A stretch of 56,995 nt of DNA from a virus (Duplodnaviria > Caudoviricetes): positions 1-56,995 of IMG/VR virus record IMGVR_UViG_3300035703_000115; one strand, given 5' to 3'. The translations under genes and the position numbers were made by a program. This document shows, in pieces, positions 3,355 through 22,970 of this stretch. Position 1 is the stretch's first letter, and each line of letters opens with the position of its first letter. The notes beneath the pieces are model-generated. The model did not search any database. It was not told the DNA's origin and was given only the letters and a program-made list of their open reading frames with translations.

Positions 3355-3355
3355 T

Positions 3356-5587
3356 ATGGGCTTGATCTTCACGGGCGACTTTGCCAACTTCGACGCCAAC
3401 CAAAAGGCGGACTACTACAAAAGCCTGCAGGGCCTGGGCTACTCGGACGGCGAAATCCGACAAGCTGCCGAGGGCGTTGCCGGCGCGCAGACCGATGCCA
3501 ACTGGAATGCGCTCAAGGGGTTGGCGGACTCGCGCCCGGCCGGCGCCGCTTTCGCAACAGGCGTTCAAAATTTCGGAGCGCCGCAGAAGGCCCAGTTCTA
3601 CCGTGACCTGCGAACCTCGGGCCTGACAGATGGCCTGATCCGTCAGGCCGCCGAGGAATCATTCGGCGCGCAGACCGATGAGAACTGGAAGGCGCTGCAA
3701 GACATGTCGGGCTACGTCGCGCCGAAGAAGGCCGCGGCATCCCCTGCTGCATCTCCTGCGCCTGCCCCCGCCCCGGTGTTCACGGCTCCCCCAGTCGCCA
3801 CCTACCAAGCGGCGGTGGCGCAGCCGGCGCGAGACGCCACCTTCCGCGGCTACGACGCGGCCACGATTGGTGATTTGCCCAAGGCTCAGATCGAGCGCAT
3901 CGTCGTTGACGATAACCAGACCGTGCAGGGCCGCCTGCGTGGACTGCTTGCCGAGGACAGTCCGATCCTGCAGCAAGCCCGCGCACGCGCCCTGGCGTCG
4001 ATGAATGCGCGCGGCCTGATCAACAGCAGCATGGCAACAGGTGCAGCGGACTCCGCTCTGTACGACGCGGCCACGCCGATTGCCGCGGCAGATGCCGGCA
4101 CGTTTGCAACGGCAGCCCGGGAAAATGCCGACGCATTCAACACCAACTCTCGTTTCAACGTCGAAACGGAAGCGAACCGGCAGCGTTACAACGCTGACGC
4201 AACCAACCAGAGTCGCGCCTTTGGAGCCCAGGCTTTCAACACCGCCGAGCTCACAAACACCGGCCGACTGCAGGAAGTCAATCTGGCCAATGCCGGCTTC
4301 CAGAATTCCGCAGCCCAGTTCAATGCCGGCGCGCAGAACACCGCCAACCTCGCAGGCTTTGACGCCAATGTCCGAAGCAGTCTGCAGAACTCTCAGCAGC
4401 AGTTTCAGCGCAGTGAAAGCGCACTGGATCGCGCGCAGCAAACGAGCCTGCAGAATGCGGCGCAGACCTTCCAGGCCAGTCAGAGTGAGATTGATCGTGC
4501 TCAGCAAATTATGTTGGCCGACAAAAACATCACGGCGCAGCAGGCGTTGCAGCAGGCGCAACAAAAGTTCCAGTCAAGCGAGTCTGCCCTGGACCGCACG
4601 CAGCAGACCGCGCTGAACCAGGCGACCCAGGCATTCCAGGCGACTCAAGCAGAGAAGGACCGCGCCCAACAGATCATGTTGGCGGATAAAAACATCTCTG
4701 CCCAACAGGCACTGGAGCAGGCGCGGTTCACGTTCCAGGCGGAGCAGTCCGGTCTTGACCGCACGCAGGCCGCATCTCTGGCCGAGGCCGGTCGGGTGTT
4801 CCAAGCGTCGCAGGCCGAGAAGGATCGTGCGCAGCAGGTCATGCTTGCGGACAAGAACATCTCCGCTCAGCAGGCGCTTGAGCAGGGCCGGTTCATCTTC
4901 CAGGCCGAGCAGGCGGGACTGGATCGGACCCAGGCCGTCAATCTTGCAGAGGCCGGCCGCACGTTCCAGGCATCGCAGGCTGAGCGCGACCGGGCTCAGC
5001 AGATCATGCTCGCCGACAAGAACATCTCCGCGCAGGTCGCGCTTGAGCAGTCGCGCCAGACCTTCAGCAGCGTCGAGGCCGGACTGCAGCGGGACTTTGA
5101 AGCGAAGATGACCGAGCTTCGCTTCTCTCAGTCCACGACGCTCGGCTCGCAGCAGTTCGCCACCAATGTCTCTGCAAGCCTCAATAACCAGATCAGCGCG
5201 ATCCTCGCAGACGGCAACCTGACGCCGGAGTCCAAGGATGCGGCCATCAGCAACTTGGTCAAGTCGGCCAACTCCACGCTCGCCTGGGGTTCTGCGTTCT
5301 ACAAAACGCCGCTGCCGTCAGTAACAGCGCCCGGCGCCACGCCTGGGCAGACCGGCACAACGGCCACCACAGGCACAACGGGCACTTCTGGTGGCGGTCT
5401 TATCAACACCACGGTAGCCGGCCCTGGCGGTCAGGCCACGCAACTGCCGGACTACTTTTCAAGGTACGGTGATGTGGCTCGTGCCTACGAGTCGGAAAAC
5501 GCTGCCGCGCGTGGCATCACGCCGGAGCAGTACGCGCAGATGCACTACGACAAGTTCGGCCGCACTGAGGGCAGGGCAGCGCCGTGA
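3356..5587 (+). CDS. Putative internal virion/ejection protein with tandem repeats
   Basis: 743 aa, Ala/Gln-rich; RGLINSSMA motif; lies in the ejection-protein block. Confidence 0.6.
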   Translation: MGLIFTGDFANFDANQKADYYKSLQGLGYSDGEIRQAAEGVAGAQTDANWNALKGLADSRPAGAAFATGVQNFGAPQKAQFYRDLRTSGLTDGLIRQAAEESFGAQTDENWKALQDMSGYVAPKKAAASPAASPAPAPAPVFTAPPVATYQAAVAQPARDATFRGYDAATIGDLPKAQIERIVVDDNQTVQGRLRGLLAEDSPILQQARARALASMNARGLINSSMATGAADSALYDAATPIAAADAGTFATAARENADAFNTNSRFNVETEANRQRYNADATNQSRAFGAQAFNTAELTNTGRLQEVNLANAGFQNSAAQFNAGAQNTANLAGFDANVRSSLQNSQQQFQRSESALDRAQQTSLQNAAQTFQASQSEIDRAQQIMLADKNITAQQALQQAQQKFQSSESALDRTQQTALNQATQAFQATQAEKDRAQQIMLADKNISAQQALEQARFTFQAEQSGLDRTQAASLAEAGRVFQASQAEKDRAQQVMLADKNISAQQALEQGRFIFQAEQAGLDRTQAVNLAEAGRTFQASQAERDRAQQIMLADKNISAQVALEQSRQTFSSVEAGLQRDFEAKMTELRFSQSTTLGSQQFATNVSASLNNQISAILADGNLTPESKDAAISNLVKSANSTLAWGSAFYKTPLPSVTAPGATPGQTGTTATTGTTGTSGGGLINTTVAGPGGQATQLPDYFSRYGDVARAYESENAAARGITPEQYAQMHYDKFGRTEGRAAP
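4472..5060 (+). repeat. 165-bp (55-aa) degenerate tandem repeat, about 4 copies
   Basis: QASQAEKDRAQQIMLADKNISAQQALEQ units start near 4472, 4637, 4802 and 4967. Confidence 0.85.
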
Positions 5588-8289: not shown

Positions 8290-11200
8290 ATGCGCTTTGA
8301 TGTCAACGCCGCTCGCAAGGCTGGGTACACCGACGATGAGATTGCCGACTACCTTTCTGAGCAGCGCGGGTTTGACATTGGCTCGGCGCGGGAATCGGGC
8401 TATTCGTCTCGGGAGGTCTTGGACTTTCTGAGCAAGCCGGAGGTCAAAAAGCCGGCCGTCGCCAACACCCCGGCCTATGTCGAGGAGCCCATCAACTACG
8501 ACGATGCGGCAACCTCGATGGCGGGTACGCCTTCGCAATCAAACGGCGGCGGCGTCCTTCAGCGCATCGGCGCGGCGCTGCGGCCCGACCAAAATCGCAG
8601 CGTGCTTGAGGGGTACAAGCAGCCGGAGGCCGAGCGCCAAGCGGAGGTTGATCGTCGCCTGTCCTACGGTCAGGGTCCAATCAGCCAGAAGGTCGCGGCC
8701 GATGCTGACCGTGTTCGCAGTGCGCGTGGCACCAACGACCAGATCAAGTTCACCAGCCCGACCTATGAGAGCCGGGTGCGGGGGGTCGTTGACGCGATGG
8801 ACGAGCGCGGCGAGCGCTCTTTTGGCGACCTTGCCGCGCTTGGGCGTGATGGCGAGATTCAGCGGGCATTGACTCAGAGCAAGGCCGACGAGTTCCGCTC
8901 TGCCGGCGAGTGGGCCATCGACACCGCATCCAATGTGATGCAGGGCGCCGTGTCTCTGGCGCAGATGCCGGTCAATCTGATCGCGCCTGACGGCTCTCTG
9001 GCCGAGTCGCTGCGGCAGACCCAGAAGGAATTGCAGGCCGAGGAGTCTGATGTCCTCAAGGCCAGCCGTGAAGTCCTCAAGCAGCGGGTGATGAACGAGG
9101 AGGGCTTCTTCGGGCAATACGCCGCCACGGTCAAGCAACTGATCACAAACCCCACGCTCGCTATCTCTGAGGGCTTCAAGCAGTTGCCGATGTTCCTCGG
9201 GATCGTGGGCGCAGCCCGTGGTGGTGCGGCGGCGGGCGCTGCCGGCGTGGCCGCCGCAGGGCGTGTTGCTCCTACGGTTGCGCTGGCAGATGCGATTGGC
9301 GGCGGCGCTCTGACGGCGCGGGCCGCCGCTATCGGCAGCACTGTGGGCGGTGGCGCCGCAGCGGTGACGATGGCCGCGGGTGATGCGGCCGGTCAGACCT
9401 ACGAGGAACTGACCGATCCCCGGCGCACTCCGCGAGAAACCTGGGAGCAGAACCCAGACTATCAGCGCCTTGTGGCCGAGGGCAAGTCTCCGGATGAAGC
9501 GATCAATGAGTTGGCCGTTGCCAAGTCGCGCATGGCCGCGCTTGTGGCCGCGCCTCTTGGCATCTTGGGCTTCATGGGCGCAGAGGCGGCAGTCGCAGGC
9601 CGCGGTATTGTTCAGGCCGCAAGGGATGCGCTGACCTTCAAGGGTGCCGCAAAGTCTTTCGGCAAGGAAACGGTTGGTGAGCAGTTGGAGGAGGGCGGTA
9701 CACAGGCCGCATCCAACTTCGCCGTTTCTACGGTGAACCCAAACAAGTCAATCCTTGAAGGCGTGCCCGAGGCGATGGCACTGGCCGGCGTGACATCGAC
9801 GCCATTCGGCGCGATTGGTGCCTTGAGCAACTATCAGCAGGCGCGGGCTCAGTTGGACTCCGGACCTGATGTGGCGGCCCTCGTTAGCCGGGATGGTCAG
9901 ACCGCAATTGATGACCGCTTCGGCGACACCCTGCGCCCCGAGCGAGTGGCTGCCGAGCGCGAGCGCCTGGAGCGTATGCGCCGCCTGTCTGAGGCGCAGA
10001 GCGTGGATGAGGCGATTGAGTTGGCCAATGAGGTGGCCAATGCGCCGGTTGCGCCGCAGACGCCTGCTGCGCCCGCGGCGCCGGTAAACGCCGGGGATGA
10101 TCCGGTTCTGAGCAATGTGCTGACATCGCTCGGGGCACTGAGCAATCAACCAGGAGGCGTCAATGTCGGGGCATCAAATCAGCCTGCACCCACAGCTACA
10201 GGAGGCCCTGGAGTTGGGGGCGGTGACGTTCTCGGAAGCCTGGTTGCTGATGGACGAAATCCTGCTGCAGGACTGCGAGGTGGTGATGATGCCGGCGGAG
10301 TACCTAGTGTTAGTAGCCAAGGTGCAGTTGTGCTGGGCGGAGGTGCCGCCGGGGGTGGTCGTCCAGTAGTTCTCCAGAACCGCGACCGATCAACGGCGGC
10401 GTCCATCTCGCAGATGAACAGCATCGCGGCAGCACCCGACTATCTCAGGGCTGGCCCGAGCCGTGAGATGGTCACGGGTGCCCCGGTGGTTTTCGGGGAT
10501 GTGCCGGATTTTGCAGCGCTGGGGCGGCAGGAGACGGTTGTGGACGGGCGTGGCAATCGAGTTGCCGTGCAGTACGCCGTGGTGGATGCTGCCGATCTGA
10601 TCCCGTCCAACCGTGCGGATGGCACCCCGGTGTCTGAGTACGAGCAAGGCGCCGCCGGCAAACTGCGCGCGGTGGCCGGCAACGGCAGAACGGCTGGCCT
10701 GCAGGAGGCGTACAACCGCGGCACTGCGGGCGCCTATCAATCCGAGATGATGGCCGACTTGCCCAATCTCGGCGTTGACCCGGCTGCGGTGCAGTCGATG
10801 CAGCGTCCGGTCCTGGTACGGGTCATGTCGCAAGATGATGTGACACCCGACATGGGCGACCGCACGAACACGGCGGTGACGCAGAACTTGAGTCCTGTTG
10901 AGCAGGCGGCCAACGATGTGCGCCGAGTGGATGTTCGCGGGTTTGAGTTCACCGATGCGGGCGACCCGACACCGCAGACTGTTCGCTCGTTCGTGTTCTC
11001 TTTGCCTGAGTCCGAGCGCGGCAACTTGCTCAACGCTGACGGCACGCCGACGCGGCAGGCCGTTGACCGGCTCATGGGCGCCACATTCCGCGCCGCCTAT
11101 GGCAATGATGGGTTGGTGCAGTTGTACGCGCAGGCCACCGACCCGGATGCGCGGTCGGTGATCAACGCCGCGGCGATGGCGGCGGGCTCCATGTCCAGCC

Positions 11201-14200
11201 TGGTTGGGTCCGCCCCGGAGTTCGACATTCGAGGCGTGGTGTCGGATGCCATCGGGATGGCGGTCAATGCGTCCAGGCAGGGAGTTCGCCTCGCTGACTA
11301 TGCAGCCAACACCGATCTGACCACAGACGCTTATGCGGCTGACATTGCAAGGTTCCTGGGTGAGAATATCCGCTCACCCAAGAAGATGGCCGAGGGGCTG
11401 CGGGCGATGGCGAACTTTGCCGCGCAGCAGCAGCAGGCTCTGGTCAGCAACGCCACCAATGCCGGCCTGTTCGGGGATCAGCCCACGGCCAGCCGCCAGG
11501 AGATCATCAATGCCGTCTTCGGACAAGCCAACGGTCAACCCCAAGTCGCTGCTAGAAACGCCGCAGTGGCGCAGGATGGCGGTCAAGGTGCTCAACGGGC
11601 AGCAACCGACCCAGCAGGAGCAGGACGAGTTTCAGTCGATGGCGCTGCAGGAAGCCAAGCGGCGACTGGACGAAATGAGCAAGGCTCAGACCAGCAAGGA
11701 CTGACATCTCCCACGGTCGATCAGGTTCTGCAGCAGCAGGACCGTGCGGCCAATGAAGCGGAACTTGATCAGCGTGATCAGGTTCGACGCGAGAGCGAGG
11801 CGGGCGCCGATCAGTTCACGCTGCAGGCGCAGGATGGCCGGGTAGACAACACCGGCAGCCTGTTCTCAAACGACAGGGAGCAGCAGGACGAGGACTTCCT
11901 GCGGACCGTGTTCGGCGCCGAATCCGGCCAGGCCGGGCAGTCCAACTCTGGAGGCGGCACCACCAATTCCGCATCCCGCCTGCCGACCGTGGAGGGCGTG
12001 GGCTCTGTTGTGCAGATGAAGGTCGGGCAGACCTTCCAGATCCGTGACCAAGGTCAGGTTCACCAGGTTCGCGTGGTGGACTCCAAGTCATCGGGCGTTT
12101 CGTCCAGGGCTCTGGACATCATCGCCAAGGTGTTCGGCAAGCGTGTGGTGTTCGTGGACCCCGGCACCTTGGATGTCGATGGATTCGTGCGGCCTGACGA
12201 CAACCGCAACATCTACATCAGCGTGCGCTCCAGGATCAACCCGCTGGCCGTGCTTGGCCACGAGTTGACGCACCTGCTCAAGCGCGACAACCCGCAAGCC
12301 TACGCCGCCCTGGAGGCGGTGGTGATGCGCGAACTGCGCGAGGGTGCGGGCAAGAGCTTCTCTGCCTACTACGGACCCGGCGCCAATACCGAGGAATTGG
12401 TTTCCGACCTGGTGGGCAACCGCCTGATGGACAAGGACTTTCTGGTCAAGTTGTTCGCCGAGATCCAGGCTCAGAACCCGCAGGGCGCGCAGGGCATCAT
12501 CGCCAAGTTGGCCGCGATCATCAACCGGGTGGTTTCTCGGTTCATGGAGTTGTCCAAGCAGGCCGGCTTTGAGACGGACGCCTTGGTCAAGCGAGTGGCC
12601 CCGATCCAGGATGCGGTGCGGCAGGCTCTGAAGGAGTACGCGCTGCAGCAGGGTCTGCGGCCGGCGCAGATGGAGGTTGCGCTGGCGCGTGCGGGAGCGG
12701 GCTTGAGCATTGAGGGTGCGGCGCCCGTGCGGCGCAGTCCGGTTCGACCGGCCAGCGCGGATCGTGCAGACCTCAACCGTTCGCTCGGCGCGCAGCGCGT
12801 CTCTCCGCGACTGCCAACCGCAGTCAAGGCCACGGAAAATCCGATGGGCAACGACCGACTGCAGCCGGACCTAGATTCAGCCAAGCGGGACGCTGTTGTC
12901 TTCGCGCACAACATCAACCTGATGGCGCAGTACCCCAACTTCGTCAATGTTGGCGGCTCTGTGGACCAAATGGCCGAGGCCATGATCACGCAGATGAAGG
13001 ACAACCTGGTGTGGCTGCACAACCAGTGGCGTCCTGAACTGCGCGAGCGGTCCCGACTCTGGTATGTGGGTGGGAATCGAATCTCACACCGTATGGCTTC
13101 GCGGTTTAGGACCGAGCCCTGGCGTGTGGCTGCCGTGATTGCGGCGACCAGCCCTCAGAAGGACTGGTTCCAGAACGTCTCTTTGGCCGAGCGCATTTTG
13201 GAGGCGGTGGTCAACAACTCGCAGATGGCCTGGACGGCGCAGATGACCGAGACGGTCAACTCCCGCGACTGGGGCGGCAAGGAGTCGCGCGATCTGGGGT
13301 TCACGCCGCGCAATGAAATCTCTCGCCTGCAGGGCAAGACCTTGCGTGATCTGTACGACCCTCAGAATCCGCAGTCTCTTTTGGATATGGCGGTATGGGT
13401 TCGCGCTTGGGATGAAACGTACAACCCCCGCATGGCCAGGGTGATCTCGCCTGAAGGCAAGTTCATTGATGAGTTCGACTCGACCAAGGACGGTCGTCCA
13501 ATCGGCCTGCGTTGGCAGAGTTTTGCGACCATTGCCAAGACGCTGGACATCCTGACTGCGCCTGATCGGGCGACAGTGTCTTCCATGATCGGCTCGAACC
13601 ATAAGGTTCGCTCGTTCTACAACAACATCATCGCGCCGTTTGATGATGAGGACGTGACCATCGACACCCATGCCGTGGCCGCCGCGCTGATGCGACCACT
13701 GGGGTCGTCAGCCACCGAGGTGGCTCACAACTTTGGCACCAACGAAAAGGGGATGCCGGGGCCGAAGAACAGTGCCATCACGGGACTTTTCGGCACCTAC
13801 CCGATCTACGCTGAAGCGTATCGCCGGGCTGCCCGCGAGGTTGGGGTGCTTCCTCGCGAGATGCAGTCCATCACTTGGGAGGCGGTGCGCGGCCTGTTCC
13901 GTCCAGAGCAGAAGAATGAGAGAATCAAGGGCGAGGCAGACCGCATTTGGCGCGAAGTCTCTGAGGGAGAACTGGATGTCAACGAAGCGCGGCAGCAAAT
14001 CTCTGGCCTGGTTGGTGGCATCCAAGACCCCGCCTGGGTCCGATCCCCTGCTGGAAGTAATGAAGCAGCGCGGGATTCCTCTTACGCAGGAGGAGTACCT
14101 GAAGATGGCGTACCCGGAAGGGGTGCCCAACCCGGTGCCGCCCGAGGTGATGGCCGAGATGCCAGCGCAACTCCGGCAAGCCTGAGTCGCGGGCGACGAG

Positions 14201-17200
14201 TCGCGCCCAACCCTGACTCCGCAAACTTCAAGCGTTGGAGCGGTAACGCCCCGCTGATCACCTCTGCAGCAGCGGTTGACCATGTCTTCAAGACGGGTCA
14301 GAAGGTGGTGCTTGAGGGCTTCCACGGTACTGGCCGGGGTGATCGTGTTGGCACGGTGTTCCAGCGCAAGCGCGCCACCTCCGGCCCGATGGCGTTCTTC
14401 ACCAGTTCGCCGGTGCTTGCGAGTTCATACGCGCAGGGGAAGCCAGACACCAGCCGCGCACTGGAGGACAACCCGTTTGAGAGTTGGTTCAAGTTCAAAG
14501 GGAAGGGAATGCGAACGGCGGTCAACCTCGACCGCGCGTGGTATTTCCTTGATCAAGAGAGCAAGGCCAAGATCGCCAAGCGGATGCCTGACATTCGCAC
14601 GGACGATGACGGCAACATCGTCTACGAAGAGGGCGGCGGCGACCTCGGCAACTACGACTGGGAACTGAAGCAAACCAAGTCGGCCTACCTGCGTGAGGGT
14701 AACCCGCTGAAGGCGGCCGTTGAATCTTGGTTGAGCAGCGGCTCCATCTACGGCGACGAGGGCAGTTTCCGCCAGGTGCTGCGCTTGGCCGGCTTCCCGA
14801 TGGATGCGCTAGATTACGACAACCCGCAGGAGACGTACCCGTTCGTCTACAAGGTCTATGTCTCCATGCTCAACCCGCTGGTGACCAGCGACATTCCGAA
14901 GGAAGTGGACGATGCCTTGCGCGCGGCTGCCGCAAAGGACCGCAGCAAGGCCAAGTCACAGTTCGGCGTGGACTCATGGGACAAGAACACCCGCACGCTC
15001 AAGGAGTGGGTGGGCGAGTACCTGAACCCATCCAATGGGGATAACCGCTACGTTTGGACGAGCATCCCTGATAAGGTGACCGAGGTTTTCAAGAGCCTGG
15101 GTTATGACGGGATCATCGACTACTCGGGGAAGAACGGTTCCACCGAAGTCGCGCCGGTCTACATCCCGTTTGAAGAGGGTCAGGTCAAGAGCGCCCTGAG
15201 CAACAGCGGCGAGTTTGACCGCAGCAAGAAGGACATTCAGGCCAGCAGATCGCGTGAGCGCCTACTGTCAATGCCTGCGGTGCCGGTGAGTCCGCTACCC
15301 GATGGTATGGCTCTTGGTGATCTTCGAGTCTTGGCTAGTGAGCGGTACAAGGCCGCTGCCAAACTTGGCCCCGTCAGGATGAAGGATGACCGCGCCGTGC
15401 TGTTGACATCGGTGGGGATGAAGAAGTCGCGCAGCCACAGCGCCGACAAGCGGGTGCTGGACTTGATGGGCTCAATTCGCGAGGTGCTTGGCGCGGCCGA
15501 GCCCGTGGCTTCGATTCCGCATCAGAAGGAAAACCCAGGCGACTCAATCCGCGCGTGGCACTACTACGGCGCGAAGGTGGATATCGATGGCGAGGAGGCG
15601 TTTGCCAAACTCGTTGTGCGCGAGTCCGTCAACGGCGAGATTTACTACGACACCGACCTGTCTGGCGTGGAAGATATCAGCGGTCGTGCTGGTGACGCTG
15701 CCCGATCCAAAACCGGGGCGGCAGCCGTTTCCGCTGACAAAAGAACTCTAGCCGATCTTTTGGGCGCGGGCAATCTTGGGAGTGAGGTTGAGTTGAGCCG
15801 CGGCCGCTCCGAAATCGGTTTCTACTCCGCCCTGTCTGAGGGCATTGACGGCATCAAGGTCAGTGCTGCGCCTGCAGCCGGATGGCGCGATGCCATCAAG
15901 GGCCTGGTGAACAAGGGTGCGGCCAAGGCCGATGAGGTGGAGTGGTCGGGGGTCAATGACTTCCTGAGCCTGCAGGCCGGCAAGGTGACCAAGCAGCAGG
16001 TGCTGGACTACCTGGGCGCCAATGGGGTGCGGGTAGAGGAGGTGGTGCTGGGCGGCAACACCGCATTGACGCCAAGCGAGCAGACCGAGATGGACGAACT
16101 GCTTGACTTGCGCCGGCGCTACGAAGAGGGAGAGGCCGGAGTCTACGAGGCGGCCGACGCCGACAGGTTGGAAGAACTGATGCGCAAGCGCATGCAGGAC
16201 GCCGAAGACGTGGCGCTGCCAAAGTACGGCCAGTACACCCTCCCCGGCGGCGAGAACTACCGCGAGGTGCTGCTGACGCTGCCAGATAGGCGCGAGCTGC
16301 CAGAGGGCTACAAGGTCAAGAATGACCCCGACTATGGGTGGATGGTTGAGAGCCCCGAGGGCGGCATGGTGTGGCAGGGCAGAACGCGAGAGGAGGCTGT
16401 CGCCAATGCCAGAAGCAGCCCGACTGTGCTGGGCCAGAAGCAGCCGGACAAGTCTTACCGTTCCTCACACTGGGACCAGCCCAACGTCATCGCCCACATC
16501 CGCGTCAACGACCGCACCGATGCCGATGGCAAGCGCGTGCTGTTCGTGGAGGAGATTCAATCTGACTGGGGCCAGGAGGGGAAGAAGAAGGGTTTTGCCG
16601 AGAAGTCCCCGAGGCCGGTCCGCGTGTTTGACCGGCGAACTGGGGCGGAGGTTGCACGGTTCAATACCGGGCGCGAGGCTGAGGAATTCATCGCGTCGGA
16701 AGATCCGCGCATGGACAGGCTTGAGTACGAGGAGGACCAGGGTCGCAACTCCGGCATCCCATCCGCACCCTACGTCACCAAGACCGAAGGCTGGCTGAAC
16801 CTCTCCCTCAAGCGCGTGATGATCATGGCCGCAGAGGGAGGCTATGACAAGGTTGCGTTCGTCAATGGCGAGCAGTCTGCTGATCGGTATGACCTTTCAA
16901 AGCAGATCAGCAAGGTTCGCTACGAGGACAGGAGCATCCAAGGCTCTGGCAAGCCCACGTTGGATGGTTCGCCTGAGAGCGGGGAGTTCTATGCCTATGA
17001 CCTTGAAGGGAATCTACAGATTAACAGGCGCCTCAATGACCCAGTCAAGGAGTTGCCTGACCTAATCGGTAAACAACTGGCTGAACGTCTTTTGAATGCT
17101 GAGCCGACAGAAGCTCGCGGCTATGGCGGTGGCTTCCGTCGCCGAGAGGTTTCTGGCGTTGACCTCAAAGTCGGCGGCGAAGGCATGAAGACCTTCTACG

Positions 17201-20200
17201 ACACCATCGTGCCCACGGCGCTGAAGAAGCTGCTGCCCAAGGTGGGTGGTGGGCAGATGAGCAATGTTGATGTTGTCTTGCAAGAAGCATACGAGCGCGA
17301 TCCCGAAGGCTTCCCGGCCAAGATTGCCGCTCAACCCGGCTTTGATGTCACCCCCGAGATGGTGCAGAAGGTATCCGATGGGGTGCCGCTGTTCAGCCGC
17401 GGCCGCAACTCTCAGATCGACACGCCTGAGTTCAAGCGGTGGTTTGGGGATTGGGAGGCTGTTATGCACCGCGTCTTCCTAGACGGCCCCCCGGTCGCCT
17501 CAGTAGCTGGCGACACATTCAGCTCTGATGGAGTGCCGCTAACGGAGAAGGTGCCCAAGTGGTACGCGGAGCGCGGCTTCTCTACGGTGGATGTGGCCGG
17601 TATCGGGCCAGTCTCGCTAGACGAGAAGGCCGTAAAAAACAGCCTTTCGCACGGTATCGGGAGGGATAAGGCCGCTGCGTTTGCGGTGGTCCCCGATGTT
17701 CTTCTAAAGGGCCGCATCATCCACCGTGAGCGGCATGATGGTGGCCGCGACACCGACATGGTGTATCACATAGCCGCGCCGGTCAGGATTGGTGGCCGCG
17801 ACTTTATCGCTGACGTATTGATTCGCGAGGACAGCAACATCCGCCGCATGTACGTCCACGAAGTCGTGCTCAAAGAAAAACTCCAGCAGTCCGCCTTCAA
17901 GACCAGTGCAGATGCAGTCGAAACTGGGGTGCGTGCTGGAGCGGGTGCTGGAGCGATGCGTAGTGTGCTTCAGAGAGTTTTCACCGTCAACCCCGCAACC
18001 GTCTCCAAAGTCGTCGATGCTGATGGCAAGCCGATGGAGGTGTACAACGGCTCGCCGGACGGGATTGAGGCGTTTGAAGAAGGCCGAGACGCCTACTTCA
18101 CCAGCAGCCGCCGATTGGCCGAGGAGTACACCGACCGCCGAGGTATGTGGTTGTCCAAGGGCGCGAACCCGACTGTCACCTCTGCTTACCTGTCAATTCA
18201 GAACCCGTTGGTGATTGACGCGCTTGGCAAGCGCAACGACAACATCCCGGTGCCGTGGCAGGAGTGGAGCCCGAAGGTATTCGGCAGGCTTCCAGATGGT
18301 GCAGTGAGCGTTGAGGCTGCGGCCAAGCGTGCCCGTGAGATGGGTTACGACGGTCTGATTGTTCGCAACGTGGTGGACAGCGCCACGACCGATGGCAAGA
18401 CCAAGGGCGACGTGTTCGTGGCCTTCAGCCCCGAGCAGATCAGGGAATCGACCGGCGACAGCAGCGACATCACGAAGTCCTCTGGCCGCGCCACCAGTGA
18501 CCTGGACCTGATCGCCAAGCGCGACGAGATGGGCCGATTGAAGTTCGGCCTGGGCAGCAAGGCTTACAGCCTCGTGGCCGAGGTGGCCAACAACGTGCTG
18601 GATCGGGTTCGCATGAAGCCCATCTCCGAAGACCTCGCTCGGGCCATGCTCAAGATGAAGGTCGCCATCGAGCAGGCGCAGGAGCGCACGGTGGATGTGG
18701 CCAAGTCCATGAGCGAACTGGACCCCGCCGAGCGGCAGATGATCTCGGATGTGATTGAGCAGGAACTGACCGCAGGCGTGGTGCCCCCAACTCGTGTGCT
18801 GCAGATCGCGGCCACCCTGCAGGGCATCATGTCCGAGCAGTCCAAGGAACTGATCGACCTGGGCATGCTGCGCCAGGAAGATGCTGACCGATGGGATGGA
18901 CGCTACATCCCGCGCTTCTACGAGCAGACTCTTGGCAAGGAAGCCTCGGCCTGGATGAAGGCGGTCAAGCAGTTGTTCACTCGCCCGCGCGCGATGATGG
19001 GCATCAAGGGCAACAACCTGAAGTCTCGCGGTCTGTGGGAGACGATCCCTGCGGACGAGTTGGCATCGTGGACGGCCAATGGTTGGGAGGCTCGCGACCC
19101 CGCGTTCGATCCGGCCACCTCAACCGAGGTCCGCATCTGGCGCGACTACACCCGCCCCGAGCGGGATGGCATGGGCGAGATTCGGGACGCCATGTTCCGC
19201 TTCGTCATGGGCTACCAGAAGGCCCAGCGCGACATCGCCTTGGGCAAGATGTACCGGCACATCAACCAAACGATGGCTAGCAGCGTCGAGAAGGATGGAT
19301 TCGTTCGGGTGCCGGACTCCAGCATCGATGGCGTGGACGTGCCGTCCTACGGCGAGCTGGCCGGCAAGTGGGTTCCGCGCGAGGTGCTGGATCACCTGAG
19401 CGCATTCGACTCCACGCAGCGCAACGCCCTGACCCGCTTCTACCAAAAGGCTCTTTCCTACTGGAAGGAGGGCAAGGTGGTGCTCAACCCGGTGAGCCAT
19501 GCCAACAACATCCTGTCCAACCTGACGATGGCCCACTTCGCCGGCGTGTCGTACTGGGACGGCGGCAAGTACATGGCCGCCCTGCGTGACATGGTCAAGG
19601 GCTCGCCCATGCTGGACGAGGCCAAGGACGCGGGCCTGTTCGTGGGATCGTTCAACCAGGCCGAGATCGCCAAGGCGCTGCCCGAGGAGTTGAAACTCCT
19701 GGCCGGCAAGTCCGAGAGCAAGGCCGGGCAGGCGGTGGACTTCGCCTTCACCGCGATGACGTTCTTCTTGCGAAAGCCGATGAACATGGCCTACGAGGTG
19801 GAGGACCAGTACTTCCGGTACCTGCTGTACCGCGACGCACGACAGCGCGGCATGGAGCCGGAGGACGCGGTGCGCCACTCGCAGCGGCACATCTTCACCT
19901 ACGACGACCTGCCGCAGGGCGCGCGCGTGGTGCGCGACACGGCGCTGCCATTCTTCGCCTACACCTACAAGGTGATCCCGGTCCTGGCCAAGACGGCGCT
20001 GGAGTACCCGCATCGGTACGCGATGCCAGCGGCCATCCTGTACACCCTCAACGCCCTTGGATTCGCGATGGCCGCCGGCGATGAGGACGATGACTGGATG
20101 GAGATCATCCGCAAGTACGCCACCGACGCCGACTTCCGCAAGAAGGTCAGCGACCTGGAGGGCCAAGAGCGCGAGAACCTGCCGCCGTGGATGCAGGGCG

Positions 20201-20859
20201 CAAGCGCCTCTCTTGGAACGCCCAAGGCGATCCGCCTGGGCGAGGATGACAAGACCGGTCTGCCGGTGTACCTGGACGTGAGCAAGATCTTCCCCGGCGG
20301 CGATCTGTTGGATGTCACATCGAACGCCGGCGGCCTGCCGTGGCTGCAGCCGCTCACGCCTTCAAGTCCTGTGCTCAACGCGGCCGCGGCGCTGTTCTTC
20401 AACCGCGATCCGTTCTACGGCAAGGACCTGGTGGACAAGAACGACACCCCCGCAGAGGCCGCAGAGAAGCGCGCCGAATGGGCGTGGAAGCAGTTCTCGC
20501 CGGCCATCACGGTCTACAACTACCACTGGGACCGCGGCATGAACGTCTTGGCCAACGCCACCGGAACGGACATCCTGGGCTACACCGGGCGCGGCAAGGA
20601 CGGCATCCCGGTAGATGCGATGTACGCGGCCATGCAGACCTTCGGCATCAAGGCTCGGCCCATTGATCTGGAGAAGTCGGCCGACATCAACGCCAACAAG
20701 GAGAAGTCCATCATCCGCTCCATTGAGGCAGAAATTTCGCAACTCAAGCGCCTGGAGGCCAAGGGCGCAATGACCTCGGAGAAGGCTCAAAAGCAGATCG
20801 ACCTTGAGAACGAGAAGATCCAGCGCATGCGCGACAAGCAAACTGAGTCAGTTGATTGA
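8290..20859 (+). CDS. Giant polyvalent protein (probably virion-injected): ddrB-like ParB domain, zincin peptidase-like domain, TIDTHA domain, two ART-PolyVal-like domains, two BECR/LPD3-like RNase domains, EEIQSD domain, helical C-terminal region
   Basis: 4189 aa uninterrupted. Motifs: LQNRDR/YAVVDAADL/VAGNGR (~10372-11480); HELTH (~12259); VTIDTHA (~13654); FHGT..FFTS..GYDGII (~14320-15120); WHYYG..KLVVRE..YYD (~15555-15650); EEIQSDW (~16549); FKRWFG..YNGS..YFT..GYDGLI (~17430-18360) interrupted by YHIAAPV..ADVLIRED..MYVHEV. Confidence 0.85.
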   Translation: MRFDVNAARKAGYTDDEIADYLSEQRGFDIGSARESGYSSREVLDFLSKPEVKKPAVANTPAYVEEPINYDDAATSMAGTPSQSNGGGVLQRIGAALRPDQNRSVLEGYKQPEAERQAEVDRRLSYGQGPISQKVAADADRVRSARGTNDQIKFTSPTYESRVRGVVDAMDERGERSFGDLAALGRDGEIQRALTQSKADEFRSAGEWAIDTASNVMQGAVSLAQMPVNLIAPDGSLAESLRQTQKELQAEESDVLKASREVLKQRVMNEEGFFGQYAATVKQLITNPTLAISEGFKQLPMFLGIVGAARGGAAAGAAGVAAAGRVAPTVALADAIGGGALTARAAAIGSTVGGGAAAVTMAAGDAAGQTYEELTDPRRTPRETWEQNPDYQRLVAEGKSPDEAINELAVAKSRMAALVAAPLGILGFMGAEAAVAGRGIVQAARDALTFKGAAKSFGKETVGEQLEEGGTQAASNFAVSTVNPNKSILEGVPEAMALAGVTSTPFGAIGALSNYQQARAQLDSGPDVAALVSRDGQTAIDDRFGDTLRPERVAAERERLERMRRLSEAQSVDEAIELANEVANAPVAPQTPAAPAAPVNAGDDPVLSNVLTSLGALSNQPGGVNVGASNQPAPTATGGPGVGGGDVLGSLVADGRNPAAGLRGGDDAGGVPSVSSQGAVVLGGGAAGGGRPVVLQNRDRSTAASISQMNSIAAAPDYLRAGPSREMVTGAPVVFGDVPDFAALGRQETVVDGRGNRVAVQYAVVDAADLIPSNRADGTPVSEYEQGAAGKLRAVAGNGRTAGLQEAYNRGTAGAYQSEMMADLPNLGVDPAAVQSMQRPVLVRVMSQDDVTPDMGDRTNTAVTQNLSPVEQAANDVRRVDVRGFEFTDAGDPTPQTVRSFVFSLPESERGNLLNADGTPTRQAVDRLMGATFRAAYGNDGLVQLYAQATDPDARSVINAAAMAAGSMSSLVGSAPEFDIRGVVSDAIGMAVNASRQGVRLADYAANTDLTTDAYAADIARFLGENIRSPKKMAEGLRAMANFAAQQQQALVSNATNAGLFGDQPTASRQEIINAVFGQANGQPQVAARNAAVAQDGGQGAQRAATDPAGAGRVSVDGAAGSQAATGRNEQGSDQQGLTSPTVDQVLQQQDRAANEAELDQRDQVRRESEAGADQFTLQAQDGRVDNTGSLFSNDREQQDEDFLRTVFGAESGQAGQSNSGGGTTNSASRLPTVEGVGSVVQMKVGQTFQIRDQGQVHQVRVVDSKSSGVSSRALDIIAKVFGKRVVFVDPGTLDVDGFVRPDDNRNIYISVRSRINPLAVLGHELTHLLKRDNPQAYAALEAVVMRELREGAGKSFSAYYGPGANTEELVSDLVGNRLMDKDFLVKLFAEIQAQNPQGAQGIIAKLAAIINRVVSRFMELSKQAGFETDALVKRVAPIQDAVRQALKEYALQQGLRPAQMEVALARAGAGLSIEGAAPVRRSPVRPASADRADLNRSLGAQRVSPRLPTAVKATENPMGNDRLQPDLDSAKRDAVVFAHNINLMAQYPNFVNVGGSVDQMAEAMITQMKDNLVWLHNQWRPELRERSRLWYVGGNRISHRMASRFRTEPWRVAAVIAATSPQKDWFQNVSLAERILEAVVNNSQMAWTAQMTETVNSRDWGGKESRDLGFTPRNEISRLQGKTLRDLYDPQNPQSLLDMAVWVRAWDETYNPRMARVISPEGKFIDEFDSTKDGRPIGLRWQSFATIAKTLDILTAPDRATVSSMIGSNHKVRSFYNNIIAPFDDEDVTIDTHAVAAALMRPLGSSATEVAHNFGTNEKGMPGPKNSAITGLFGTYPIYAEAYRRAAREVGVLPREMQSITWEAVRGLFRPEQKNERIKGEADRIWREVSEGELDVNEARQQISGLVGGIQDPAWVRSPAGSNEAARDSSYAGGVPEDGVPGRGAQPGAARGDGRDASATPASLSRGRRVAPNPDSANFKRWSGNAPLITSAAAVDHVFKTGQKVVLEGFHGTGRGDRVGTVFQRKRATSGPMAFFTSSPVLASSYAQGKPDTSRALEDNPFESWFKFKGKGMRTAVNLDRAWYFLDQESKAKIAKRMPDIRTDDDGNIVYEEGGGDLGNYDWELKQTKSAYLREGNPLKAAVESWLSSGSIYGDEGSFRQVLRLAGFPMDALDYDNPQETYPFVYKVYVSMLNPLVTSDIPKEVDDALRAAAAKDRSKAKSQFGVDSWDKNTRTLKEWVGEYLNPSNGDNRYVWTSIPDKVTEVFKSLGYDGIIDYSGKNGSTEVAPVYIPFEEGQVKSALSNSGEFDRSKKDIQASRSRERLLSMPAVPVSPLPDGMALGDLRVLASERYKAAAKLGPVRMKDDRAVLLTSVGMKKSRSHSADKRVLDLMGSIREVLGAAEPVASIPHQKENPGDSIRAWHYYGAKVDIDGEEAFAKLVVRESVNGEIYYDTDLSGVEDISGRAGDAARSKTGAAAVSADKRTLADLLGAGNLGSEVELSRGRSEIGFYSALSEGIDGIKVSAAPAAGWRDAIKGLVNKGAAKADEVEWSGVNDFLSLQAGKVTKQQVLDYLGANGVRVEEVVLGGNTALTPSEQTEMDELLDLRRRYEEGEAGVYEAADADRLEELMRKRMQDAEDVALPKYGQYTLPGGENYREVLLTLPDRRELPEGYKVKNDPDYGWMVESPEGGMVWQGRTREEAVANARSSPTVLGQKQPDKSYRSSHWDQPNVIAHIRVNDRTDADGKRVLFVEEIQSDWGQEGKKKGFAEKSPRPVRVFDRRTGAEVARFNTGREAEEFIASEDPRMDRLEYEEDQGRNSGIPSAPYVTKTEGWLNLSLKRVMIMAAEGGYDKVAFVNGEQSADRYDLSKQISKVRYEDRSIQGSGKPTLDGSPESGEFYAYDLEGNLQINRRLNDPVKELPDLIGKQLAERLLNAEPTEARGYGGGFRRREVSGVDLKVGGEGMKTFYDTIVPTALKKLLPKVGGGQMSNVDVVLQEAYERDPEGFPAKIAAQPGFDVTPEMVQKVSDGVPLFSRGRNSQIDTPEFKRWFGDWEAVMHRVFLDGPPVASVAGDTFSSDGVPLTEKVPKWYAERGFSTVDVAGIGPVSLDEKAVKNSLSHGIGRDKAAAFAVVPDVLLKGRIIHRERHDGGRDTDMVYHIAAPVRIGGRDFIADVLIREDSNIRRMYVHEVVLKEKLQQSAFKTSADAVETGVRAGAGAGAMRSVLQRVFTVNPATVSKVVDADGKPMEVYNGSPDGIEAFEEGRDAYFTSSRRLAEEYTDRRGMWLSKGANPTVTSAYLSIQNPLVIDALGKRNDNIPVPWQEWSPKVFGRLPDGAVSVEAAAKRAREMGYDGLIVRNVVDSATTDGKTKGDVFVAFSPEQIRESTGDSSDITKSSGRATSDLDLIAKRDEMGRLKFGLGSKAYSLVAEVANNVLDRVRMKPISEDLARAMLKMKVAIEQAQERTVDVAKSMSELDPAERQMISDVIEQELTAGVVPPTRVLQIAATLQGIMSEQSKELIDLGMLRQEDADRWDGRYIPRFYEQTLGKEASAWMKAVKQLFTRPRAMMGIKGNNLKSRGLWETIPADELASWTANGWEARDPAFDPATSTEVRIWRDYTRPERDGMGEIRDAMFRFVMGYQKAQRDIALGKMYRHINQTMASSVEKDGFVRVPDSSIDGVDVPSYGELAGKWVPREVLDHLSAFDSTQRNALTRFYQKALSYWKEGKVVLNPVSHANNILSNLTMAHFAGVSYWDGGKYMAALRDMVKGSPMLDEAKDAGLFVGSFNQAEIAKALPEELKLLAGKSESKAGQAVDFAFTAMTFFLRKPMNMAYEVEDQYFRYLLYRDARQRGMEPEDAVRHSQRHIFTYDDLPQGARVVRDTALPFFAYTYKVIPVLAKTALEYPHRYAMPAAILYTLNALGFAMAAGDEDDDWMEIIRKYATDADFRKKVSDLEGQERENLPPWMQGASASLGTPKAIRLGEDDKTGLPVYLDVSKIFPGGDLLDVTSNAGGLPWLQPLTPSSPVLNAAAALFFNRDPFYGKDLVDKNDTPAEAAEKRAEWAWKQFSPAITVYNYHWDRGMNVLANATGTDILGYTGRGKDGIPVDAMYAAMQTFGIKARPIDLEKSADINANKEKSIIRSIEAEISQLKRLEAKGAMTSEKAQKQIDLENEKIQRMRDKQTESVD
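10163..10369 (+). CDS. Nested small ORF 1 (68 aa) in the +1 frame of the giant gene
   Basis: AGGAGG 5 nt before the ATG; nearly all codons end in G/C in this frame, while the host frame becomes Gly-rich filler with A/T-ending codons. Confidence 0.7.
   Translation: MSGHQISLHPQLQEALELGAVTFSEAWLLMDEILLQDCEVVMMPAEYLVLVAKVQLCWAEVPPGVVVQ
11510..11704 (+). CDS. Nested small ORF 2 (64 aa) in the +1 frame of the giant gene
   Basis: AGGAG 7 nt before the ATG; helical-looking product MPSSDKP...EAKRRLDEMSKAQTSKD; begins just after the ParB-like domain. Confidence 0.6.
   Translation: MPSSDKPTVNPKSLLETPQWRRMAVKVLNGQQPTQQEQDEFQSMALQEAKRRLDEMSKAQTSKD
13976..14185 (+). CDS. Nested small ORF 3 (69 aa) in the +1 frame of the giant gene
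   Basis: GAGGGAG 6 nt before the ATG; product includes DPLLEVMKQRGIPLTQEEYLKMAYPEG; its stop coincides with the SRGR module junction. Confidence 0.7.
   Translation: MSTKRGSKSLAWLVASKTPPGSDPLLEVMKQRGIPLTQEEYLKMAYPEGVPNPVPPEVMAEMPAQLRQA
15668..15738 (-). ncRNA. Candidate antisense structured sRNA 1, downstream of RNase-like domain 1
   Basis: Closing stem GUCAGCGG/CCGCUGAU, inner GCUGCC/GGCAGC, and CCCGG-UUUUGGA-UCGGG; G-U pairs form only on the minus strand; the 5' end lies 7 nt from a predicted -10. Confidence 0.55.
15745..15773 (-). promoter_or_regulatory. Antisense sigma70-like promoter TTGCCC-N17-TAGAGT
   Basis: Reverse complements of gggcaa (15768-15773) and actcta (15745-15750), 17-bp spacer. 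Confidence 0.55.
17872..17954 (-). ncRNA. Candidate antisense structured sRNA 2, downstream of RNase-like domain 2
   Basis: Closing stem GCUCCAGCA/UGCUGGAGU, inner CCGC/GCGG and CCAG/CUGG, CAGU-UUCG-ACUG tetraloop, 3' UUUUUCUUU tail. Confidence 0.6.
17962..17990 (-). promoter_or_regulatory. Antisense sigma70-like promoter TTGACG-N17-CACACT
   Basis: Reverse complements of cgtcaa (17985-17990) and agtgtg (17962-17967), 17-bp spacer. Confidence 0.5.
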
Positions 20860-21723: not shown

Positions 21724-22761
21724 TCAAAGTGCCTTGCGCCTGGACGCTGCCGAGCGGTCGTAAACCTTGGCCGTGGTGGTCGGGCTGGCGTGGATTTCGG
21801 GCAGTGTTCCAAGCTGTTCCTTGTGGGCCGTGACGTAGTGCGCCCGCAGATCGTGGAAGGTGAATTTGCGCCGGATGACCTTGGCGTCCAGCGCGGCCTT
21901 GATGAACTTCTGCCACTGCGCGGCGAACCCGAAATAGGTGTACGCATTGCCGTGCTGATTGCGGAACACCGTGCCCTCGCGCGGGTTGGTTGCAAGCGCC
22001 CGCATCCTGCCCAGCAGTTCGCGCATGGCGGGGCTGATCTCAATGCGCTCAACACGCTCATCGCGTCCACGCTGTTTGCTGCGCTTCAGACGCACTTCGG
22101 TGCTGGTCACCTGAGTCCATGTCATGTCGAGGAATTCGGCCTGACGGGAGCCTGCCAACGCAGCGAATTCAGCCGCCCCGCAGATGATCAGACTCTGCCC
22201 GCCACGGGCTTGAGCAAATGCCGCCAGGGCCTTGAGGTCTGCTGTCTCGGGAGAGACAGTGCGCGGCCTCTCTTTGTTGCGCTTGACTTGCCGCTCACGG
22301 CAGGGATTGACCAGCGCCTCCCCCCTCTCAATGGCTAGACCGATCAGGATGCTCAACAGCGAAATCTCGCGGTTGGCACGCACTGGGGCGTCAGACCTCT
22401 CCACGCGCAAATATTGCGCGATCATGGGCGCGGTGATGTCGGCGGCCTGCATGGCTCCGAAAACCCGCAGCACCGCGACCGAGTAGGCCGTGTAGTCCTG
22501 CTGTGTGCGGGGCTTGAGATCACGCCACAGTGGTGTGAGTTGGTAGGTGTCCCACAGACCCGCTATCGTGCCGATGGCGGGGCCGCTGCGGGTGAGGTCA
22601 AGCACCTTGCGGATCGCCGCCTCGCGGTCTGTGCCGAGGTTGATTGGCTTGCCGCGCAGGGGGTGGTAGCGGTAGGTGACGGTCTTTCCATCCTTCCAAG
22701 GCCGCGCCTCCATCAGCGGCAACAAGCCTTGAGCACTGGCGCGGTCTTTGGGTCGGATCAT
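21724..22761 (-). CDS. int: Tyrosine integrase
   Basis: GSRQAEF (R), FHDLRAH (HxxR), H...VY (catalytic Tyr); next to attP. The start could also be 22776. Confidence 0.92.
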   Translation of the reverse strand: MIRPKDRASAQGLLPLMEARPWKDGKTVTYRYHPLRGKPINLGTDREAAIRKVLDLTRSGPAIGTIAGLWDTYQLTPLWRDLKPRTQQDYTAYSVAVLRVFGAMQAADITAPMIAQYLRVERSDAPVRANREISLLSILIGLAIERGEALVNPCRERQVKRNKERPRTVSPETADLKALAAFAQARGGQSLIICGAAEFAALAGSRQAEFLDMTWTQVTSTEVRLKRSKQRGRDERVERIEISPAMRELLGRMRALATNPREGTVFRNQHGNAYTYFGFAAQWQKFIKAALDAKVIRRKFTFHDLRAHYVTAHKEQLGTLPEIHASPTTTAKVYDRSAASRRKAL

Positions 22762-22970
22762 GCTGACACTCTCCATTTCGGCCCATTGACGGGCGTTGCC
22801 TGGGCCATATTACGCCTGTCCCAATCTGCCCTTCGCACCAGAGGCTTGCCGTTGGGCTTCACATCGACCGGCAGGCCAAGTCCGCGCAGGAAGCGAACCT
22901 GGGCGTGGCCCTGTACCAGCGGCTCGCAGATCGCGTCAATCTCTTGCTGAGTGAGGATAGGCAGGCTCAT
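22758..22970 (-). CDS. Putative excisionase, DUF4224-like
   Basis: LTQQEIDAIC...AQVRFLRGLGLP...GKPLVRR; overlaps the int start. Confidence 0.7.
   Translation of the reverse strand: MSLPILTQQEIDAICEPLVQGHAQVRFLRGLGLPVDVKPNGKPLVRRADWDRRNMAQATPVNGPKWRVSA

Follow-up and report, generated by a model that had tools for sequence, protein, structure and literature searches.

The giant gene and its three embedded reading frames

The IMG/VR virus record IMGVR_UViG_3300035703_000115 (Duplodnaviria; Caudoviricetes) is a complete record of 56,995 bp, referred to below as the window, and carries on its forward strand a giant gene at 8290–20859 that encodes a polyvalent protein of 4189 residues in a single unbroken frame. 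Inside this gene lie three small open reading frames (ORFs), all on the same strand, all starting with ATG and all in the +1 frame relative to the giant gene. ORF1 (68 residues; 10163–10369) is preceded by an AGGAGG at 10152–10157 and occupies a Gly/Ala-rich linker corresponding to residues 625–694 of the main protein. ORF2 (64 residues; 11510–11704) is preceded by an AGGAG at 11498–11502 and is situated in the linker after a ddrB-ParB module, at main residues 1074–1139. ORF3 (69 residues; 13976–14185), with a GAGGGAG at 13963–13969, is located directly after a DUF7178 module and covers main residues 1896–1966. The ddrB-ParB module upstream of ORF2 comprises 379 residues (10372–11508, forward strand; Pfam PF18763, 65.7 bits, matching residues 695–846), and the DUF7178 module upstream of ORF3 comprises 365 residues (12880–13974, forward strand; Pfam PF23802, 95.1 bits against a curated cut-off of 27).

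Further along the forward strand, Pfam recognizes an LPD3 domain at residues 2352–2453 (15343–15648; PF18798, 76.6 bits) and ART-PolyVal in two stretches, the best at residues 3243–3392 (18016–18465; PF18760, 95.1 bits). With multiple unrelated effector-type domains in one polypeptide, the giant ORF fits the definition of a polyvalent protein given by Iyer, Burroughs, Anand, de Souza and Aravind (2017, PMC5512222). A zincin-like metallopeptidase for self-processing is common but not universal in such proteins. In the giant ORF, a HExxH motif at residue 1324 (12259–12273, forward strand), found by motif search only, marks a possible zincin peptidase, and no Pfam peptidase family matches this region at E ≤ 0.1. 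No BECR or PBECR RNase domain is found in the giant ORF by Pfam. Hence, among the domains named in the initial annotation, ParB and ART are confirmed, the zincin comes down to a single motif, and the BECR-fold RNase is not recovered.

Thirty-three ATG ORFs of 60 codons or longer lie off-frame in the giant gene, eight of them with a Shine-Dalgarno-like 4-mer, so that an ORF together with a Shine-Dalgarno match is insufficient as evidence by itself. With so many off-frame ORFs, and with ORF1 and ORF2 lacking significant homologues, the three frames could be taken for shadow ORFs of a GC-rich gene, or for untranslated relics that have been fused over. The base composition argues against this. Sliding-window analysis picks out exactly three segments, at approximately 10120–10390, 11500–11770 and 13960–14230, in which the GC content of main-frame third positions is 0.26–0.46, compared with 0.76 for the whole gene, and that of main-frame first positions reaches 0.8–0.9. 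Read in the +1 frame, the GC contents of codon positions 1, 2 and 3 are 0.69, 0.31 and 0.87 in ORF1, 0.61, 0.39 and 0.84 in ORF2, and 0.65, 0.46 and 0.78 in ORF3, which is the normal profile for genes of this genome. The remaining 16 of the 19 off-frame candidates tested have the inverse, shadow-frame pattern, with translations rich in Arg, Ser, Ala and Pro; the coding-like positional GC is confined to the three. The Shine-Dalgarno-led frames at 10163, 11510 and 13976 that the initial annotation had singled out are thus present and have a coding-like composition, and its proposal that the linker DNA carries a second layer of information is borne out as a second coding layer.

The main-frame translations of the three segments are Gly/Ala/Gln-rich linkers, and shadow-frame coding explains the low-complexity sequence and the unusual codon usage in some linkers of giant polyvalent proteins. 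Such low-complexity linkers are confined to the first 2,000 residues of the giant protein. Only three nested genes exist, all inside the first 1,966 residues, and none adjoins the ART or LPD3 modules; a cassette for each module, as first proposed, is therefore not supported. None of the three nested proteins has a match in Pfam or PHROGs, nor in GenBank phages by tblastn, and the giant gene itself has no match in GenBank phages by megablast.

A comparison is provided by G001, the one related phage in IMG/VR, which is 90–96% identical over the giant gene and in which the giant-gene frame is open as well over the parts compared. Outside the nested segments, 327 of 6702 nucleotides differ (4.9%), and 263 of these differences fall at the third position of main-frame codons. 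Inside the nested segments, only 7 of 612 nucleotides differ (1.1%), six at main position 1 (equivalent to nested position 3), one at main position 2 and none at main position 3. Both the lower rate (Poisson P = 6e-7) and the shift in codon position (Fisher P = 3e-5) are significant. In the +1 frame all seven differences are silent, and four of them alter a main-frame residue: ORF1 has four differences, three of them nonsynonymous in the main frame, and ORF3 has three. ORF2 is identical in G001, but the tract without differences around it begins at 11315 and extends past 11865 (at least 550 nt), which makes its identity uninformative and leaves ORF1 and ORF3 as the source of the selection signal. 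The composition of G001 shows the same three segments and no others.

Judged from the G001 differences and from the divergence of the ORF3 family described below, the embedded frames are under purifying selection. ORF3 is very likely a real gene, ORF1 is probably one, and ORF2 is likely to be one with only slightly less assurance. That the nested frames are shadow ORFs or untranslated relics is very unlikely; the seven +1-synonymous differences, with none at main position 3, are difficult to reconcile with it.

The tract of approximately 11315–11865 stands out in a gene that differs by 4.6% overall, and may be due to recent recombination.

Linkage of the small genes to the DUF7178 and ddrB-ParB modules

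In the case of ORF3, a word-indexed protein search returns a single homologue, of 68 residues and 74% identity. A metagenome scan adds a 30.7-kb contig of 38.5% GC (L007), where a polyvalent ORF of 2677 residues contains a DUF7178 region followed by a +1-frame ORF3 homologue of 65 residues with an ATG start and an AGGAG site. For a wider sample, the best 80 of at least 568 IMG/VR relatives of DUF7178 were fetched, and 84 loci in total were searched in six frames with a hidden Markov model (HMM) of three ORF3 sequences. An ORF3 homologue follows DUF7178 in 78 of the 84 loci, over a GC range of 0.33–0.68. In 58 loci it is nested in the +1 frame directly after the domain, 42 of them with a closed main ORF and 16 with a main ORF running off the locus (one, L009, is a weak match with E = 0.2); in eight it overlaps the main stop; in eight it is a separate gene past the stop, in frames +1, +0 and +2; and in four it lies just downstream on the opposite strand. 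The HMM has no match in the other six. Among the 15 DUF7178 loci below 45% GC (33–44%), ten have the nested form, and this persistence at low GC, together with the size of the family given below, disfavours the shadow-ORF reading for ORF3.

The reciprocal search gives the same picture: of 82 loci found through the ORF3 motif, 79 have at least 900 nt of upstream sequence, and DUF7178 is directly upstream in 77 of these 79 (69 nested). The forward and reciprocal sets share contigs and near-duplicates, so that the counts are not independent, and they amount to 64 unique family proteins. The cassette linkage of ORF3 and DUF7178 is real, and the co-segregation of a nested ORF with its adjoining domain, which had been put forward as a check, is strongly positive here in both directions.

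In the four opposite-strand loci (L049, L054, L088 and L089), the convergent ORF3 homologue overlaps the 3′ end of the DUF7178 gene by a few tens of nucleotides, and the linkage is retained despite the inversion. The two exceptions to the linkage, L131 (2869–3174) and L132, come from one Betaproteobacteria metagenome-assembled genome, where ORF3-like sequence ends an ORF of 101 residues; the neighbours, assigned by eye, are an Lrp/AsnC-like regulator, a Sir2-like protein and an XRE-like regulator, and these copies may be prophage remnants.

These two copies without DUF7178, together with ORF1, which has no module-linked relatives, would suit another explanation, in which the small genes are independent effectors, such as anti-defence or regulatory peptides, unrelated to their neighbours and locked in place by fusion. 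However, the linkage persists without overlap in 12 loci, covering three frames and the opposite strand, and the GC range of 0.33–0.68 points to long co-inheritance. Independent effectors are therefore an improbable account of the arrangement.

Most ORF3 homologues start at their own ATG, and a Shine-Dalgarno-like 4-mer is present at −17 to −4 of 49 of the 64 unique starts, compared with 10.1% of 8639 control ATGs taken from these loci. These starts bear on programmed +1 frameshifting, by which the +1 segments would be alternative C-terminal ends of the upstream module. The segments do lie in +1 and reach a stop a short way past the module, and for ORF2 and ORF3 the +1 frame is already open before the ATG (from 11333 and 13733, respectively). 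Nevertheless, the compositional switch begins at the ATG and not upstream, the enrichment of ribosome-binding signals would be unexpected, and homologues also occur past the main stop in +0 and +2 and on the opposite strand; frameshifting is the least likely of the explanations considered.

Substitution patterns within the family agree with those between the window and G001. Over 70 ungapped pairs, which are not independent, substitutions at nested positions 1, 2 and 3 number 378, 625 and 1179, and the amino-acid divergence of these pairs is 20.1% in the nested frame compared with 29.4% in the main frame. The family core motif, approximately P-L-T-R-E-N-Y-L ... A-Y-P-E-G, is kept in stand-alone, non-overlapping forms, which makes the main-frame 'SSY' conserved in the giant forms a by-product of the nested frame. 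The constraint is split between the two frames along the overlap: where DUF7178 ends in conserved sequence, the small protein has its variable and disordered N-terminus, and where the main frame is a low-complexity tail, the small protein has its conserved core.

A profile of 48 members, searched against 1.84 billion cluster representatives, matches 2051 at E ≤ 1e-3 and 538 at E ≤ 1e-10, nearly all of 55–125 residues. The ten representatives that were looked up are unnamed or called 'hypothetical protein', and neither ORF3 nor the stand-alone homologues searched match Pfam or PHROGs, from which the family is absent. Gene callers omit genes nested in genes, and a family of at least 2051 cluster representatives has thereby escaped both collections. 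The AlphaFold 2 (AF2) model of ORF3 contains four short helices at residues 24–67, with a predicted local distance difference test score (pLDDT) of 69.9; it has no match in the PDB by Foldseek and no usable match in the ESM Atlas. The net charge is negative in 46 of the 64 family members, with a median of −4.

Several variants of the cassette are present. Some called proteins of 149–189 residues, such as P0003 and P0005, contain two stretches matching the ORF3-family profile, which suggests a tandem duplication or fusion of the small protein. At L020 (approximately 3900–4200), the HMM has no match, and a +1-frame ORF there has an ORF3-like N-terminus and a different remainder; the partner gene may have been replaced. 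Across L011–L090, the DUF7178 protein is often of approximately 670 residues, with an N-terminal portion of approximately 260–315 residues without a Pfam match, and the main stop of these proteins lies a constant 38 nt past the stop of the nested gene.

A second small-gene family is associated with the ddrB-ParB domain. The ParB module of the window is 40% identical, over its full length, to part of a 4203-residue protein of Bacillus phage Dartukuta, and 36 IMG/VR loci contain relatives of the module. In 15 of 34 loci inspected, a small gene of approximately 50–65 residues lies in +1 directly after ddrB-ParB; in 12 of the 15 it is nested and the main ORF continues past the end of the locus, and in L116, L117 and L126 the small gene lies downstream and overlaps the ParB stop by approximately 14 nt. 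Four of the 34 loci are truncated, and 15 have a complete ParB match without an ORF2-like gene.

ORF2 has the same place and frame as this ParB-linked family. In a phmmer search of ORF2 against 17,103 six-frame pieces, the eight best non-self matches are all positional equivalents, the best at a marginal E of 0.067. Alignment of ORF2 with the family by hhalign is likewise marginal (probability 40.9, E = 2.8e-4, 31 columns), the family HMM does not detect ORF2 in a database-wide search, and the word-indexed protein search finds no homologue of it. Since homologous DNA yields some +1-frame similarity regardless of whether the frame has a function, ORF2 is considered a probable positional analogue of the ParB-linked small genes, and possibly a distant homologue. 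A cassette linkage is likely for ORF2. The expected co-segregation at ddrB-ParB thus holds for the small-gene family and extends to the ORF2 of the window only through a marginal resemblance.

The Dartukuta record (MW749009; L092) annotates the 4203-residue protein, from 5880 onward, as a 'putative methyltransferase'; it has the ParB module, and an ORF2-like nested gene at 9142–9300 is unannotated there. Phage P1 (NC_005856; L091, 4207–4605) has an annotated gene of 132 residues, iddB, inside ddrB (the prototype for the ParB domain) on the opposite strand; as an antisense gene of that length, it is judged unrelated to the +1 nested genes.

ORF1 differs from both. No homologue outside G001 is found in GenBank phages, in the word-indexed protein search or in genome contigs, and the 34 related loci inspected show no frame resembling ORF1 upstream of ParB. 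A match in L130, within an in-frame part of a 478-residue protein without a Pfam family (30.4 bits, 34% over 62 residues), was rejected, since an exact 8-residue pattern had seeded it and the collection searched was very large. With no homologue next to any related module, the predicted co-segregation is not supported for ORF1, which is a lineage-specific third case tied to no particular module.

Predicted activities of the modules and a proposed role for the small proteins

The nature of the partnered modules bears on what the small proteins may do. The AF2 model of the DUF7178 module is confident (pLDDT 90.7; predicted template-modelling score 0.89). In an exhaustive VIA-align comparison, every one of the top 22 rows is either an HhH-GPD glycosylase or the queuine salvage enzyme DUF2419, with Z from 9.4 to 4.7, and the next row has a Z of 3.8. 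The list is headed by 3n0u (Z = 9.4, root-mean-square deviation 4.1, 189 aligned residues), followed by 7ugk (8.3) and 1xqp (7.9), with DUF2419 at 8.3, and includes AGOG, endonuclease III, MagIII, Mag1, OGG1, MutY, AlkA and ROS1. Helical models can reach a Z of approximately 9.4 by a common arrangement alone, so that the fold argument depends on the uniformity of the list and on the gap below the top 22 rows. Foldseek finds no PDB match for the model at E ≤ 0.001, and in BFVD the model matches only uncharacterised phage proteins.

All 48 aligned members match Pfam DUF7178 (PF23802), and their invariant residues are arranged around a helix–hairpin–helix: K242 lies in the helix 241–251, P253 in a loop, and D262-T-H264 starts the helix 263–270, so that an invariant Lys and Asp flank the helix–hairpin–helix and the Pro-containing loop that follows. 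This layout is presumably that of the HhH-GPD active site. DUF7178 is accordingly predicted from its model to fold like the HhH-GPD DNA glycosylases and to be a glycosylase-like enzyme.

For the other partnered module, ddrB-type ParB domains are predicted in the main text of PMC5512222 to be nucleoside triphosphate-regulated DNases, and are packaged in P1 heads. Both partnered modules are therefore predicted to act on DNA, which fits a need for restraint, and the ART and LPD3 modules carry no partner.

A route by which such cassettes could become embedded may be proposed as follows. In the starting state, an enzyme gene and its small downstream partner would be two genes, abutting or slightly overlapping. 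Upon loss of the enzyme's stop codon, the enzyme frame would read on through the stop-poor shadow frame of the partner gene, where a main-frame stop needs T at the partner's third codon position, and hence the frame would tend to stay open. The read-through would yield a disordered tail at first and, in giant proteins, a linker joining the next module, and the partner would survive as an embedded gene with its own Shine-Dalgarno site and ATG. The arrangements seen are a separate gene, a gene that overlaps the stop, one nested beneath a short tail which itself ends approximately 40 nt further on, and one nested in a giant-protein linker; the order of the fusion events is inferred from this range and not from a rooted tree. 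ORF3 would then be the partner of DUF7178, ORF2 would occupy the position of the ParB partner, and ORF1 would be the third, lineage-specific case.

As for function, the small and mostly acidic partners might bind the adjoining DNA-acting enzyme and restrain it in the producing cell or in the capsid, protecting the phage's own DNA until the polyvalent protein is delivered or processed, which would be an immunity-like role. This role is ranked first, packaging or ejection chaperones second, and an unrelated function kept by history third; the immunity-like role accords with how tightly the genes are coupled, with the small size and mostly negative charge of the proteins, and with the predicted action of both partnered enzymes on DNA. 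The reading as a whole, in which the dual-coding linkers are embedded partners of enzyme cassettes and the partners have an immunity-like role, comes close to an even chance without reaching it. An antidote function of the small proteins, taken by itself, is more doubtful, and the boldest form of the proposal is rather unlikely: that polyvalent proteins grow by read-through of enzyme–inhibitor cassettes, every DNA-damaging module (the glycosylase-like DUF7178, the ParB-like DNase) bringing along an immunity protein, and their linkers being shadow-frame translations of immunity genes that protect the producing cell and the co-packaged genome until delivery.

Several observations weigh against this reading as a whole. 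Four DUF7178 loci (L078, L080, L008 and L010) have intact conserved motifs and no adjacent small gene, which argues against an obligatory antidote, and, with the complete ParB loci that lack an ORF2-like gene, indicates that the partner is not obligatory. The ORF3 of the window has a net charge of +1 and is not acidic. The glycosylase assignment, already qualified by the behaviour of helical models in VIA-align, finds no echo at the sequence level, as no HhH-GPD Pfam family matches any of the 48 DUF7178 members at E ≤ 10 and the DUF7178 profile matches no PDB chain at E ≤ 10. To these are added the missing homologues of ORF1, the marginal kinship of ORF2 and its uninformative identity in G001, the lack of nested genes at the ART and LPD3 modules, the interdependence of the pairs compared, and the shared contigs behind the locus counts.

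The same linkage evidence (78 of 84, 77 of 79 and 15 of 34 loci) would also be expected if the small proteins were not inhibitors and instead bound their module to keep it unfolded, soluble or targeted for uptake into the capsid and transit through the tail. Small acidic chaperones are encoded beside type III secretion effectors, and the proteins considered here would resemble them in size and in being mostly acidic; their N-terminus is disordered and their helical core short. A helper would, moreover, account more easily than an antidote for the loci where the enzyme motifs are intact and the partner is absent. The polyvalent protein is in a late-gene-like position, and the packaging of ddrB-type proteins into heads (PMC5512222, main text) is consistent with such a helper. 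However, such help would be needed by the ART and LPD3 modules too, yet neither has a nested gene, and the Foldseek search of the ORF3 model against the PDB finds no structural similarity to known chaperones. Packaging or ejection chaperones are thus an unlikely explanation, less so than independent effectors, and the immunity-like reading is preferred.

Should the partners prove to be inhibitors, they would represent a new class of self-immunity for virion-delivered enzymes. The proposal also offers a concrete route for assembling giant polyvalent proteins, through stop-codon loss and read-through of a small downstream gene, and if the read-through or immunity-linker reading is true, thousands of embedded genes would be absent from phage annotation. 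Meanwhile, DUF7178 gains a testable identity as an HhH-GPD-like glycosylase, and both DUF7178 and ddrB-ParB gain candidate partner proteins, which opens the function of these widespread but uncharacterised phage modules to direct testing.

Related systems and other features of the giant gene

Embedded +1-frame phage genes, toxin–immunity cassettes and polyvalent proteins are each already known, and the locus resembles all three in part. Rz1 inside Rz of phage lambda is an embedded +1-frame gene. In both cases, the small gene is complete, has its own start and is enclosed entirely by a larger gene in +1, and embedded, overlapped and separate variants occur among relatives. In the window, however, the host gene encodes a multi-enzyme virion-type protein, the three embedded genes lie in inter-domain linkers, and the ORF3-type and ParB-linked genes are tied to particular upstream enzyme domains. 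The toxin–immunity cassettes of polymorphic toxin systems, reportedly described by Zhang et al. in 2012, are similar in that a small gene directly downstream is co-inherited with a domain predicted to act on nucleic acids and the cassette moves as a unit. Here, the partner does not follow a C-terminal toxin but is enclosed in the frame of the same protein, and it is missing in some loci with intact motifs.

Compared with the polyvalent proteins of PMC5512222, the giant protein is alike in being a large multi-domain phage protein with ddrB-ParB, ART-PolyVal, LPD3 and a possible zincin motif, and in the modular rearrangement between relatives, which is seen here against G001. The words 'overlap', 'frameshift', 'antidote', 'linker' and 'glycosylase' do not occur in the main text of that paper, which describes neither linker-embedded genes nor a glycosylase-like module.

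The predicted fold of DUF7178, in which the invariant Lys and Asp flank the helix–hairpin–helix, is shared with the HhH-GPD glycosylases (endonuclease III, OGG/AGOG, MutY and AlkA) and with DUF2419, from which DUF7178 differs by the lack of a sequence-profile match and by approximately 100 extra helical residues at the N-terminus. Restraint of a DNA glycosylase by a small phage protein has a precedent in phi29 p56, described in PMC2018632 as an inhibitor of the host uracil-DNA glycosylase. The likeness lies in a small phage protein, of approximately 56–70 residues, that could restrain a DNA glycosylase, and most ORF3-family members are acidic. The target of p56, however, is a host enzyme of a different fold, whereas the target proposed here is the phage's own co-encoded enzyme, and the ORF3 of the window is not acidic. 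No similarity of the ORF3 model to p56 is found by Foldseek against the PDB.

No paper on DUF7178 was found. The literature searched on polyvalent proteins, phage overlapping genes and virion glycosylase inhibitors, including PMC5512222 by its main text (its supplements may list DUF7178 under another name), describes no embedded genes in polyvalent-protein linkers. What is new is the presence of embedded genes in the inter-domain linkers of polyvalent proteins, tied in hundreds of phage contigs to particular domains upstream of them, together with a large unannotated family of small proteins, the ORF3 family, and a fold assignment for DUF7178.

Two antisense units, each with a promoter and a structured RNA, had also been proposed as RNA antidotes within the giant gene, at 15668–15773 and 17872–17990 on the reverse strand. 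Neither has a promoter-like site; the whole gene has two such sites, both elsewhere, compared with 2.1 expected from shuffled sequences. The predicted folds are no more stable than those of shuffles (z = −0.86 and −1.39, respectively), and no Rfam family is found in the window. Furthermore, G001 has other DNA in place of the stretch that contains the second unit. The RNA layer is rejected.

The stretch in question, 15817–18466 (2,650 bp; main residues of approximately 2510–3392, including the second ART-PolyVal match), is exchanged in G001 for approximately 1,110 bp of unrelated sequence. The best ART-PolyVal stretch (18016–18465) falls within it. At 11915–11959, 44 bp in the window correspond to 548 bp in G001, adding approximately 168 in-frame residues; the inserted G001 segment has no +1 coding signature. 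From the alignment, these replacements are read as module swaps in a gene that is otherwise 90–96% identical. Directly after the giant gene, a tyrosine-integrase-like gene is located at 21724–22776 on the reverse strand, from which the phage is probably temperate, and the genome also encodes DnaB-like and other helicases.

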